NCBI GenBank assembly: GCA_964016885.1
Contig: OZ024740.1
Span: 119,660,001 to 119,724,000 of the forward strand
Direction of reading: 5' to 3'
Origin: Eledone cirrhosa
Taxonomy: Eukaryota
Length of the DNA stretch: 64,000 nt
In this document: in pieces, positions 11,468-58,244 of the stretch
Numbering within the stretch: position 1 is the first letter of the stretch
How the letters are laid out: each line of letters opens with the position of its first letter
Position numbers and translations under genes: made by a program
The notes under the pieces: generated by a model
Database searches by the model: none
Seen by the model: the letters and a program-made list of their open reading frames with translations, nothing else
What the model was told of the DNA's origin: nothing

Positions 11468-11576
11468 AACGAAGGAAATGTGGTAAGGAACCAGGTCGAC
11501 CATAACGCACCAAAGTACTCAATACTTAGGGTAGTAGAGTGAGTAAGAGGAACGAGTAGGGCCCCTACTCGTTCCT
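11468..11576 (-). mobile_element. Mini PLE-derived insertion: post-hammerhead segment with 14-bp fold-back, in (TA)n
   Basis: Homologous to 12965-13062; perfect inverted repeat 11548-11561/11563-11576. Confidence 0.85.
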
Positions 11577-12199
11577 ATATATATATATATATATATATAT
11601 CATAAATCATGTCCTTAGAATCACTAGATAAAATATATACCATATGAAAACCTTTATATATATATATATATATATATGCTTTGTTATGTCTCAATGTGCA
11701 CTGGAATGAACCTTAATGTACTGAAATTCTAGTGATTCCCTGAGTTTAACTGAGGAGATGGGATTGTCCATGCTCCATTGTTTCTTCCTTGTCTTGTCAA
11801 ACCCCCTTTTTTGAATATATATATATATATACAGGGTGGTGCATAATTAGTTTACCAGCTTACTGTTAATTTGAGAAATGTACATACAAAAGAAATAGTA
11901 ATATGAAACCTTATTTCATAATGAATGCATAGGCAATTCATGTAAGTTTATATAATTACATGAAATTCCAAAGTGCTGCCATAATTAGATTTCTTTGAAA
12001 TCATCTTCAACTACTTTGTTAAGGCATGAGTAACTATAATAAACAGTAAGGCACTGGGAACTGAGTATTGATGTACATCTATTTGCACCTTAAATACCTT
12101 TTATAAATTGTCATTCTGTTAATGGTATGTTTGAGCATGGTATTTCAGGCTCATGCAAGGCATTTATCTACACATAATGTTTGTACCAATCACCATACT

Positions 12200-12693
12200 A
12201 CAGTGTATGGTTCTCTGTAAAGGTCTTTTTGGGGTCTACGAATATAAAAAAATAATGGTTTGCTCTTAGCTAAGAATTTCTGCAGTAATTGTATCCTTTG
12301 TTAGGACACATCGGTAGAACCCTATACTGGGTCACTCTGAATAGCATCTCATCTAAGGTAGCCCTGTCTTTAATCACTTTTGGTATAACTGCTTGTTACT
12401 TACATAATTTAGTCTATCAGTTTGAAGCCTCTGTAGCTTCTTTCTGAAGAATCATCTTTCCCTCATTGCAATTTATGATTATAGAGCTATGCAAGTTATT
12501 GGGTGTGTCATTTCCCTGTATTATATGATCAACTCTGCAAGTGACAAGCTTATTACTTCACTGGATATTTTCAACATCTCCAGTATCTATCACTCTGATT
12601 ATCCAACTGTATTCCTTGCCTTCATATCCGTAATCATGTTTTCTACCAAGTAGCTGTCAATTTCAACAGTTGATTTCTTATTTGGTGTGTAAT
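12200..12693 (-). mobile_element. Old RTE LINE relic (start of RT region); continues at 19835-20390
   Basis: Degenerate minus-strand translation EMLK...SSIIINC...YRGFKLID resembles RTE RT; colinear with 19835-20390 across a ~7.1-kb interruption. Confidence 0.65.
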
Positions 12694-13057
12694 GTCTCTC
12701 TCTCTCTCTCTCTCTCTCTCTCTCTCTATATATATATATATATATATATATATATATATATATATATATATATATATATATATATATATATATATATATA
12801 TATATATATATATATATATGGCATGGTCACCTCACCCAGCATTTCTCAGTACAGAATAACTCATCTAATGCATGCTAGCATGGTTAAATGGACGTTAATG
12901 GTGATAATATATATATATATATATATATATATATATATATATATATATATATATATATATATATAACGAAGGGAATGTGGTAACGAACCAGGTGGACCAT
13001 AAGGCACCAAAGTACTCAATACTTAGGGTAGTAGAGTGGGTAATAGGAACAAGTAAG

Positions 13058-13151
13058 ACCCCGACGGCTGAGCTCAAGCCGTTTTGACGGCTAATTCTGG
13101 ACTGAATGAAAATTTATTCTGGTATTTAAATAGCCGAGCTTATCAAGGGGT
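13058..13151 (-). ncRNA. Type I hammerhead (U3-A8 core) with G12A substitution
   Basis: acccc-TTGATAA-stem II-AAAAC-GGCTTGAGCTCAGCC-GTC-ggggt; the conserved G of GAAA is A (position 13085). Confidence 0.75.
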
Positions 13152-14229
13152 AATTCCATATATGGTCAAAGAGACACTCACCAGGATTGGTCACATCACA
13201 AGTTAGTAGTAAATCGGTGATGGCAAGTTGGTGGGGGAAGGGGTAGCTAAACCTGCCGGTAGGAGAAAAAGGGAGAGGGGCTGGAGTAGACCCATTCATG
13301 CGTTGGTAGTGCCAGCTACAGCTGGGCGTGAGGTCAAATGGATACTGGGGAGGGGGAGGAGGAGGAATTCGAAACGGTAAGTAGAACAATGAAGGGTAAA
13401 ACTATAAACAGTACTGAGAGAGAAAAAAAAAAGCAAAGTCTGGTTACTAAGACTTAAGTCTCTCGCTATTGCTAGGCTACATAAATAAATAAACAAATAC
13501 GTGAATAAAAGAATAGATAAATAAATTTAAAAATATATATAATGAAGAATAAAATACTAAAGAGACTGCCACGAAATAATAAAGGTTTCTACCCCAATCA
13601 CAGGGCCAGCAACCACCCAGTGCAAGAAAGTAAACTAGTACGAGAATATAATTTAGGGTCCCGCAAAAAAATACTAGTGCTAACTCTAAGGGTACCGCCA
13701 CGAAACGAAAAGTCTTATACACGCTACATGAAAGATCGTACGAAGTAAAAGTAAAGAACGGAAAATTAATACAGAACCCCCCCCCCCCCCCTCCCCAACA
13801 AAAGGGAAAAATAAGAAAGAAATACTGGATAAACGAGAAATTTAAGCAAAGATGCCACTAAGAAATATAGAAGGCACGGAAAAAATGGACATCGGTCGGA
13901 GAAGGGGGCAAGTATCCGAAGTCTAACACCTCTGCTATAAAAAGGGGAATCAGCCAAATCTATCATAGAATAGGGGAAGGGGGTGAGGGTGTTGAAGCTA
14001 CAAGGGACCGAGGGGCTACCTCGGGTGGGCGAGAAAAAGACGACAACAAAGAAAAGGAACTGGGGTAGAAGGACTAGGGAGGGATGGGGGGAAGAAGGAA
14101 ATATAGAGGAAGCGATAAAAGAATGTAAAAGAAGGTCTTACGTCTCCATTGGCAAGCAGGGGTTACCCATTACAAAATAGGCAAGTGGAGTGTTATAGCC
14201 CTAGTATACCCCCCCCCCCCCCGGGTCAT

Positions 14230-56230: not shown

Positions 56231-56923
56231 TTTAATATATTGTATATTTATTTTATTGTTTTCATATGTGTGTATATGCGTATGCGTGTGTGTGTGTGTG
56301 TGTGTGTGTGTGTGTGTGTGTGTGTGTGTGTGTGTGTGTAGATATGTGTATGTATATATGTATATGTATATATATATATGTATATATATATATATATATA
56401 TATATTTATATATATATATATATATATATATATATGTATGTATATATATGTGTGTATGTGTATGTATATATATATATATGTGTATATGTTACGTGAATGT
56501 GTATGGATGTATTGTATATTTGTTTTATTGTATATTTATTATATTATATATTTATTTTATTGTTTTTGTATGTGTGTATATGTGTAAGCGTATGTGTGTA
56601 TATATATATATGTGTGTGTGTGTATGTAGATATATGTGTGTGTGTGTGTGTGTGTGTATGTATATGTGTGTGTATGTGTATGTGTGTGTATATATATATA
56701 TATATATATATATATATATAATATTAAGGATACTATTTATGGTTATGTATATACTAAAACTTGTTATAGTTATGTATATTTTAAACCCTAAACAGTGAAG
56801 GTCAATAATTTATTACTACCTTATTACCAGTAAGATAAATAGCTCAATGTAATAACATCAGTTGTTCTACAGAGCAGTTATATAGAATTCACAAGAATCA
56901 AAGCTATGTTCAAAGCATTTATT

Positions 56924-56970
56924 CACTTACAATTGTTTCATCCAAACCTAGACTTTAGGTCTTCGGAGCA
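56924..56970 (-). ncRNA. Type I hammerhead, CCGAAGA (U4C) core
   Basis: tgct-CCGAAGA-stem II-GAAAC-AATT-GTA-agtg. Confidence 0.6.
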
Positions 56971-57564
56971 TTTTTCAATGTTTGTACACATAATTGACCT
57001 CCTTTCCAACGCAAGAGACATACAGATACATATATATATATTGATATACAGTGGAGTGACATATATTATACTATATTATTTCTGTATAGCAATTCAAATT
57101 CAAAATCAAAATCAAGATCAAAATTAAAACCTTCTTTTGCTTCTCCTTTTTATTTTTATTTTTCTGCACACATACTTTTTTATTATATACAAAAAATACC
57201 TTACCACTACAACCACCATAATACTCTTCTTACCCGCTTAAAGTGCTTGTATTACATGTAACACCCTCCCACACACTAATCATATATAAATGAGACACAC
57301 TTGCATAACCCACGTTTAACTAACGCATACACTAACTACTACATCTGACTAACAAACTATCCTCTTGCATTATCTGTGTTAGCTGTCGAATGTATTTTAA
57401 TTTTGTTTTAATTTAAATTTTCATTTTCATTTTGAATTTGAATTGCTATACAGAAATAATATAGTATAATATATGTCACTCCACTGTACATCAATATATA
57501 TATATGTATCTGTATGTCTCTTGCGTTGGAAAGGAGATCAATTATGTGTACAAACATTGAAAAA

Positions 57565-57611
57565 TGCTCCGAAGAATCCGAGCCTAGGTTTGGCTGAAAC
57601 AATTGTAAGTG
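57565..57611 (+). ncRNA. Type I hammerhead, CCGAAGA (U4C) core
   Basis: tgct-CCGAAGA-atccgagcctaggtttggct-GAAAC-AATT-GTA-agtg, followed by AATAAA. Confidence 0.65.
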
Positions 57612-58244
57612 AATAAATGCTTTGAACATAGCTTTGATTCTTGTGAATTCTATATATGTATATATATATATACTTTTAATTATTTTTCTATTTACTTATT
57701 TATTTATTTATTTATTTATATGTGTGTATGTACGCATGCATGTATGTGTATGGATGTATATATTTGGTTACATTGTTTATGCTGGTGCACGTATAACAGG
57801 ATGCATCCTTTCATGGATGACCCTGTATGACATTTTATGCAACTTTATATGACTGTGAGTATATCACATTTGAGTACGGACAGAGATATATGTGTGCGTG
57901 TATGTATCTTTGTAGATGTACGTGTGTGTGTGTGTGTGAGTGTGTGTGTATATGTATATATGTGTGTATAGATACATGTGTGTGTATGTGTGTATGTATA
58001 TGTATATATGTATGTGTGTGCGTGAGTGTGTATGTATATATGTGTGTGTGTATGTGTGTGTATATGTGTGTGTGAGTGACTTGTGAAATACCAAACCCAG
58101 CATGAATTCATTGAAGTATAGCAGCAAATATTGGGCAGAATTTATGAGGACCTAGAAAAACAACAGCTAACAGCAGGACAAGCGAGGAAGATGTTTTTTG
58201 AAGCTAAAACCCTAGTAAGAAAATTTGTTCTGAAATTATTGCCA

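Follow-up and report, generated by a model that had tools for sequence, protein, structure and literature searches.

The window analysed here, a 64,000-nt stretch of Eledone cirrhosa DNA (assembly GCA_964016885.1, contig OZ024740.1, positions 119,660,001–119,724,000), holds eight insertions, lettered A to H, that bear on how Penelope-like elements (PLEs) integrate. Each lies between simple-repeat arrays and carries the 3′ end of an element twice, both copies pointing outward: a short end (S) that stops at a TA-like motif and a tailed end (T) that runs further. We lean, with slightly better than even confidence, towards a reading in which both ends of a cut (TA)n tract prime reverse transcription, one at each of two fixed TA-like sites, probably of a single transcript. 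The unequal ends are real and occur throughout the genome, in a layout already known; the new detail lies in the strict pairing, the target-matching start sites, the long tails, the alleles shared by both arms and the addition of repeats. An earlier prediction, made from the letters of the window, had proposed the common layout, and self-comparison and end alignment bear it out, with one S and one T end in 8/8 insertions and tails of 34–164 nt (A and B 80, C 35–40, D 34–41, E about 80–82, F 80, G 87 and H 164 nt). The five TA-like motifs that it quoted were also found where it had placed them. A and B are of one family, so that the eight insertions represent seven families.

In order to count the end pairs genome-wide, we searched the assembly (3.0 Gb, 1796 contigs) with one tail-containing query (B) and with body-only queries for all seven families, B to H, taking for each query the best 30 or fewer loci among up to 3217 candidates, a selection that is not a random draw. 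The 120 central hits of four body-only queries comprised 57 S ends (plus one doubtful), 59 T ends (plus one doubtful) and 2 others. Among 80 rows of head-to-head pairs, which include six window insertions and in which two rows of locus L230 are one tandem duplicate, 76 were S+T, 2 S+S and 2 partial+S, with no T+T. As the S+T row L051 duplicates L247, 75 of the 77 classifiable unique pairs are S+T, both S+S rows counted (binomial p = 4e-20 against 0.5); one of these S+S rows, a family D copy at L154, was an anchor error and is S+T on later reading. At three further loci (L244–L246) the far arm had run into a tandem unit and was predicted to end at S, as 3/3 did. Additional D loci judged by eye contributed about 27 S+T pairs and no T+T; a further 5 had a partial end and 2 were possibly S+S.

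The same asymmetry appears in a family-blind sample of forty 10-kb stretches at round coordinates, together 400 kb of arbitrary genome (L332–L371), where the scan returned 38 asymmetric rows, 7 that were symmetric and 21 unanchored. Once 8 duplicate, nested or weak rows had been removed, 30 distinct asymmetric insertions were left, about one per 13 kb; they represent many families, a few of which may not be PLEs, and their tails measure 27–191 nt. The symmetric rows were two segmentation artefacts, two TA-centred palindromes, two elements resembling miniature inverted-repeat transposable elements (MITEs; L351, L370) and one of low complexity. Ends that are fixed per family and almost exclusively paired S+T agree with the original prediction, under which neither random nor symmetric ends were expected.

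The T end, like the S end, lies at an internal TA motif of the element, since copies that read on past it were obtained for four families, B, D, G and H; F yielded one unconfirmed candidate. With the slash marking the T site, these copies read cgt/TATctagctcc in B, aatat/TATtaactgctcc in H, cacac/ATATATActacgctcc in G and tcta/ATtttc in D, so that the motif is TAT in B and H, ATATATA in G and AT only in D. At the S site it is TAT in B, TATATA in H, ATAT in F, TAATATA in E, TATA in C and (AT)5 in D, and a TA run of at least 3 nt stands at the S site in 17/30 insertions of the blind sample, compared with 8% of background positions. In B, G and H the ATG comes after the T site, which places the tail in the 5′ untranslated region (UTR). 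It had been proposed that one target end primes internally at a UA motif; the two-ended route remains the best reading, yet the T end is likewise an internal TA site, and both sites therefore need explaining.

Either arm of a pair can be the longer. Measured from the S site, the S arm is longer in 25, the T arm in 12 and neither in 7 of the 44 pairs resolved among 60, and the head-to-head joints overlap mostly by 0–10 nt. Paired arms differ by about 2–5% on average and are closer to each other than to arms of other insertions in 54 of 69 pairs; they agree at common alleles 71 to 19 and share rare alleles 16 times, against about 1.1 in shuffles. Paired arms thus descend from one source copy or have been homogenised by gene conversion. 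The inverted joints are also present in short-read contigs (X1–X3, from one sample that may be the source individual): in these, minus-arm and plus-arm sequence of F meet at several different positions and the left junction of F is matched exactly, and none of them spans the whole F insertion. A search of sequencing runs with family F listed no RNA run.

No systematic target-site duplication was found in the pair rows: direct repeats with at least 8 non-repeat letters occur in 4/80 rows, against 0.75% in shuffles, and are convincing in window insertion F only, which has a direct repeat of ATATAAAATGTT on both flanks and extra TA on the tailed side. A paralogous empty site of insertion B (19592–19686, within an inverted duplication) has 47.5 TA units, compared with 29.5 + 18 around B, so that this one empty site indicates no net target change; the equal count implies that the tract existed before B, unless the paralog has lost B. 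Net addition of TA by the reverse transcriptase (RT) is unsupported by this one site, the extra TA at F being the single opposite case.

In the route that we favour, a GIY-YIG endonuclease (EN), probably as a dimer, would cut both strands of a (TA)n tract. One target 3′ end would pair over 2–10 nt with the upstream UA motif (S) and the other with the downstream one (T), and one primer per site on one RNA would yield one S and one T end. The cDNA primed at T would copy the tail and continue through the same body by strand displacement; PLE RTs have, to our knowledge, no RNase H, as strand displacement on one RNA requires. Both cDNAs would stop early, often at the hairpin of hammerhead stems II/III, and would be joined head to head by microhomology. 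Failure of one primer would leave a single-armed copy, and at a UA motif preceded by TC or CA, slippage of the RT would lead to repeated addition of that dinucleotide.

Several observations weigh against this route. The TA overlap is short; it is absent at 6/30 S sites of the blind sample and measures no more than 2 nt at D's T site, and the start sites of Poseidon are not homologous to the cut DNA according to the available sections of Frangieh 2024 (PMC11167929). Pairs of the wrong kind exist: L043 in family B is S+S (its flanks are inverted-duplicated), L168 and L325 in family D are perhaps S+S, and L348, a palindrome with a TA tract in its middle and both ends tailed, is T+T-like; many copies, moreover, are single-armed, S or T. 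Family D arms are closer within an insertion in only 5/10, paired arms are discordant at 19 common-allele sites, and the shared alleles could also have arisen if the inverted arms underwent gene conversion or if one locus supplied two transcripts. An in-register test on tandem units gave 4 sites consistent with one RNA, 6 conflicting and 1 uninformative, and a smaller version of it gave 3 for one RNA and 1 against.

The conflicts of the in-register test are accommodated equally well if priming is two-ended on two RNA copies of one locus, held by an asymmetric protein dimer of which one subunit always uses S and the other T. Such a dimer would explain the S+T pairing, the fact that either arm can be longer and the shared alleles, all without strand displacement; it also requires a built-in asymmetry and the co-loading of sister transcripts, and with thousands of first-look candidates per family the RNAs should mix more than 19/90 discordant sites suggest, for which reasons we think it unlikely. 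Still less probable to us is that the tail is set on DNA, the endonuclease of the element itself cutting a symmetric or circular intermediate at the internal TA in one of its arms, in the manner of the 'EN-mediated resolution' proposed in Craig 2021 (PMC8557442). The endonuclease does prefer AT-rich DNA and the pseudo-long terminal repeat (pLTR) itself, as reported in the accessible part of PMC11167929, internal TA tracts of elements do serve as targets (H lies inside the UTR of a G copy), and primer pairing would not be needed. Set against this are the absence of any T+T precursor in 80 pairs and, in the same sections of PMC11167929, in vitro RT starts that already match both tail boundaries; the fixed internal TA at the T end and the family-specific (TC)n and (CA)n joints would also be left unexplained.

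A single priming event at T, followed by fold-back and self-priming of the cDNA up to the S motif (cf. Arkhipova 2013), would account for the shared alleles and for the 7/44 pairs with equal arms, and many B minis join near a palindrome 43–64 nt upstream of S. Its template would, however, limit how far 5′ a fold-back arm can reach, and in 25/44 resolved pairs the S arm exceeds the T arm, by up to several kb; as a general route fold-back is rejected on this ground and we consider it very improbable, with a place perhaps in a minority of short copies. An origin of the inversions as assembly artefacts, or as DNA transposons of the MITE type, is scarcely credible. The sequence is TA-rich and repeat-dense and the blind sample has a few symmetric MITE-like elements (L351, L370); against this, the arms differ by about 2–5%, the ends are fixed per family, the open reading frames (ORFs) are of PLE type and the independent short-read contigs join the two F arms at several points. 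The features expected of MITEs or terminal inverted repeats are also missing from the insertions, whose ends are asymmetric, whose arms vary in length and which have no systematic target duplication.

The two-primer route on one RNA leads to a wider proposal, which we put forward tentatively and judge to be well below an even chance: Hydra-clade PLEs would carry out an obligate two-primer synthesis on one RNA, in which the cut (TA)n ends anneal to two UA-templated starts of one pLTR and an RT related to telomerase adds (TC)n, (CA)n and whole tails by realignment. If true, one mechanism would produce both the PLE tail and the inverted repeat, priming would depend on homology as in telomerase, and the obligate route would explain an insertion density of about one per 13 kb in a 3-Gb genome.

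The added dinucleotides are specific to families and ends. Runs of (TC)5–58 stand before the TA tract at the short ends of H (6/18 unique copies) and often at those of C too, and tailed ends of G carry up to 48 CA units, compared with 3.5 or fewer in all 11 read-through copies listed. No added dinucleotide was seen at 50 B short ends or at 18 F short ends, although F has a TGTG seed. At the opposite end of H and G pairs no remnant of that repeat is present, an argument against compound targets. Likely, the (TC)n and (CA)n were added by RT slippage at the start of synthesis, the alternative being that they expanded after insertion. Tail copies stand in tandem at 17257–18080 in the window and partial tail repeats occur at L029, L250 and L217; realignment between TA motifs would fit both.

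The arrays themselves are polarised. In the 400 kb, 13 (TC)n(TA)n arrays read TC>TA and none GA>TA, and 57 versus 2 do so in PLE-enriched loci; for (CA)n(TA)n versus (TG)n(TA)n the blind-sample loci gave 52 and 37. The idea that (TC)n(TA)n arrays derive mainly from PLE ends is unsupported, since most of the 13 have no recognisable PLE end before them. A short motif follows the start sites in families B, E, F, G and H, with ACTCT a few bases past S and, in B, G and H, GCTCC a few bases past T; it may be a candidate recognition signal for the RT. A loose CTC..GAG pattern follows S in 16/30 tails, a count made without a control, and folding of four tails in search of a conserved hairpin after S gave a significant result for G only (z = −3.55).

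With respect to coding capacity, longer copies connect B, F, G and H to RT and GIY-YIG-type ORFs, and the PLE origin that had been suggested is thereby upheld. Translations contain the motifs FIQFDIESYY, GLYRDD and AYIG..R..H..E..N in a single ORF, which on the strength of these motifs we take to encode an RT with a C-terminal GIY-YIG endonuclease. Pfam and PDB sequence searches of the ORFs returned no RT or GIY-YIG label, and the 811 relatives at E ≤ 1e-20 are all unnamed, with no named reference PLE protein among them. The elements have the structure of EN-containing (EN+) PLEs, with a pLTR formed by partial tandems, an inverted 5′-truncated copy and an optional tail. Family B is a 3.5-kb unit that occurs in partial tandems and is young (copies 95–98% alike) and abundant; A, F, G and H are 5′-truncated ends of coding PLEs with long UTRs.

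Judged from their translations and ends, A, B, F, G and H probably belong to coding PLE families of the Hydra clade, mostly as truncated ends. They resemble that clade as described in Craig 2021 (section 11, PMC8557442) in the DKT motif, the CxCx5C linker, the CxxC and CxH motifs, the C-terminal EN and the insertion into (TA)n. The clade's change of DKG to DKT appears as SDKTG in B and G and ADKTN in H; the linker reads CNCPDRSSC in B, CNCRSNRTC in H and CNCRNPESC in the ORF at window position 49861; and CxxC and CxH stand around conserved E and N as CNLCSEE..LLN..ACKH in B and CKLCLSEA..VNL..CRH in F. In place of the N-terminal RWK of the clade, B, G and H have RWR, a conservative change, and nearly all ends of the 80 pair rows adjoin TA runs. 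The families depart from two tendencies of the clade, the B unit being 3.5 kb long (>3 kb) and the hammerhead cores of B, F, G and H being non-canonical.

Non-coding elements had been thought to use the same route, which is shown for D alone, A, F, G and H being ends of coding PLEs; C and E are not tied to an ORF, with two ORF hits nearby only. Family D is a non-coding unit of 319–321 bp that is dispersed and also forms an array of at least 28 units (G000:C14:23,499,039–23,508,200; L312, L313). This satellite array opens with a short inverted S arm and closes with a tail, an S+T frame around the satellite. By its sequence D may work like a retrozyme, and it is not classed as one for want of a hammerhead core.

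The insertions had further been described as mostly hammerhead-bearing. The GAAA-stem III-UH half of the motif is indeed present in all seven families B–H (family majority), whereas the canonical CUGAnGA core occurs among them in E only and an Rfam search gave no hammerhead match at E ≤ 1. B and C have a UUGAUAA core, the published U3-A8 variant, H has CCGAAGA, and F and G have the 5-nt CUCGA; in D, GAAA-stem III-UA lies near 22029 and no CUGAnGA core was recognised (family majority). In the window, copy C has lost the motif and copy A retains only the part 3′ of the predicted cut. The CUCGA core stands at 52176, at 44070 (−) and at about 58295–58299 (−), and it is at least 90% conserved in 37–38 copies per family. 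It lacks the positions G5/A6, which presumably have a role in the hammerhead core, and the fold may be inactive or a new hammerhead variant; F and G are related, so that its presence in both is not independent evidence.

When end positions are mapped relative to the hammerhead, the idea that cleavage fixes the arm boundaries fails. The starts of B arms cluster at the hairpin of stems II/III, 43–64 nt upstream of the S site, and the predicted cut lies 17 nt upstream of it; only 2 of about 100 listed arms (L053, L025), together with window copy A, begin near the cut, which is ruled out as the arm boundary. That B arms stop at the hairpin and not at the cut fits uncleaved templates.

Within the window, insertion A (11469–11575) is a mini copy of family B with 90% identity to 12966–13065; its tailed arm, on the − strand, begins at the predicted hammerhead cut and its short arm on the + strand measures about 14–17 nt. 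The tailed arm of B (12966–15352, −) reaches about 2.3 kb upstream of the S site at 13043–13045 and holds the 3′ half of the RT/GIY-YIG ORF, the 3′ UTR and the UUGAUAA hammerhead variant (core near 13134–13146), with the 80-nt tail at 12966–13045. Its short arm (15353–16763, +; 1.4 kb, 96.8% identity to the tailed arm) ends gttcc/TAT into (TA)18. Insertion C (16838–17213) has its short end on the − strand running into (TC)19(TA)18, so that (TC)19 stands between the short end and the (TA)n, and a 35–40-nt tail on the + strand; the extra lone C tails at 17257–18080 are each followed by (TA)n, as tandem tail repeats of which one is inverted. Insertion D (21982–22404) is a partial tandem of the retrozyme-like, non-coding unit of ~320 bp and therefore contains a third, internal copy, with S on the left and T (34–41 nt) on the right.

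Insertion E (38570–38778) is of an older family, with S on the left and a tail of about 80 nt on the right. It has the canonical CUGAUGA core at 38627–38639 (−), its pLTR is related to that of B and its arms are only about 68% identical to each other. Insertion F (43997–45428) comprises the 3′ UTR ends of a coding PLE, with S on the left and the 80-nt tail on the right. Insertion G (52090–52457), the 3′ ends of a coding PLE family, has S on the left and on the right its 87-nt tail, followed by (CA)8 and then (TA)n, with the CUCGA-core hammerhead-like motif near 52176. To that family also belongs a single-armed, tailed and decayed coding copy at 53312–58456 (+; ORF pieces 53554–55765), and insertion H (56722–57650) sits in a TA tract of the 3′ UTR of that copy. 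H consists of the 3′ ends of a coding PLE, with the 164-nt tail on the left and S on the right, and carries its CCGAAGA-core hammerhead-like motif at 56960 (−) and 57569 (+).

Other features of the window were also recorded. Another 5′-truncated coding PLE (49375–52070; ORF pieces 49375–50769), with a canonical type I hammerhead at 51966–52020 and apparently a single short end, adjoins insertion G, and the end of a further PLE family at 52962–53260 (−), with a canonical hammerhead core at 53215–53221, recurs in L335 and L343. A large inverted duplication at 12822–19771 comprises a SINE/RTE-like end (SINE, short interspersed element), TA, GA and element C, with B in one arm only, and also holds an RTE-like fragment of an RT (17990–18763) and the C tails in tandem. 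An 836-bp inverted structure at 42441–43276 has arms about 90% alike and a SINE-like centre, without long flanking TA arrays. The stretch 22895–23749 (−) is the end of an ORF resembling that of a long interspersed element, with three C2H2 zinc fingers (Pfam zf-C2H2), and 61213–64000 is a tandem of ~1-kb units, 93–99% identical, each with a 37-bp minisatellite. Elsewhere in the genome, inverted duplications of flank or element sequence are centred on TA tracts at L043, L045, L339 and L348; TA arrays may seed fold-back rearrangements.

The origin of PLE tandem and inverted repeats, of the tail and of the microsatellite bias is an open question in Craig 2021 (PMC8557442), and the same question is left unvalidated in the accessible sections of Frangieh 2024 (PMC11167929). 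A quantitative rule emerges from the present data: an insertion has an S end and a T end, each at a motif complementary to the target, its arms carry the same source allele, and either arm can be the longer, which excludes fold-back as a general route. Should the RT make the repeat additions, there would be a functional link to telomerase. For annotation, such elements will resemble MITEs or SINEs though most are PLE ends. Family B, being young and abundant, suits an assay of the mechanism.

In L1 twin priming, reportedly proposed by Ostertag and Kazazian in 2001, the second target end primes internally and the inversion is joined by microhomology; there the second site is variable and the parts do not overlap, whereas the PLE insertions have two fixed sites and arms that copy one and the same region. 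Family D recalls the non-LTR retrozymes that Cervera and de la Pena are said to have described in 2020. Like those of Li et al. (bioRxiv 10.64898/2026.07.22.740005, available part), it is a non-coding unit, here of 320 bp, dispersed and in tandem; it differs from retrozymes in having no CUGAnGA core and in its inverted S+T ends, as left by PLE integration. The accessible parts of that preprint, of PMC13282606 and of PMC9977147 contain nothing on element ends, and those of the preprint nothing on tails or priming. Opposite-strand hammerhead pairs 100–700 bp apart and the U3-A8 core are reported in the available portion of PMC4209133.

The one-tailed inverted PLE layout is already in print (PMC8557442, Fig. 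2 legend; PMC3846280), and in the accessible part of Arkhipova 2013 (PMC3846280) the tail is optional on one inverted pLTR and self-priming is proposed. In the literature consulted we found no PLE pair count, two-site TA pairing or two-primer model, some of which older work (Arkhipova 2006; Evgen'ev and Arkhipova 2005) may hold. Canonical EN+ PLE insertions (PMC3846280, PMC8557442) share with those described here an inverted 5′-truncated copy and an optional tail; here, however, the tail measures 27–191 nt and not 30–40, it occupies the 5′ UTR upstream of the ATG in B, G and H, the S+T pairing is measured as near-obligate and both ends lie at target-matching TA motifs. The closest biochemical parallel is with PAc, a Poseidon element of Anolis carolinensis, for which the available sections of Frangieh 2024 (PMC11167929) report that, in vitro, two internal RT starts bound the tail downstream of the hammerhead, that uncleaved RNA is the main template, and that both strands are cut and extended, a dimer being predicted. 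Those sections draw no connection between the two start sites and the paired ends of an inverted insertion. The PAc starts, as described there, lie in an AC-rich stem-loop inside the ORF, without homology to the cut DNA, whereas the starts in Eledone cirrhosa are UA motifs complementary to the (TA)n target.

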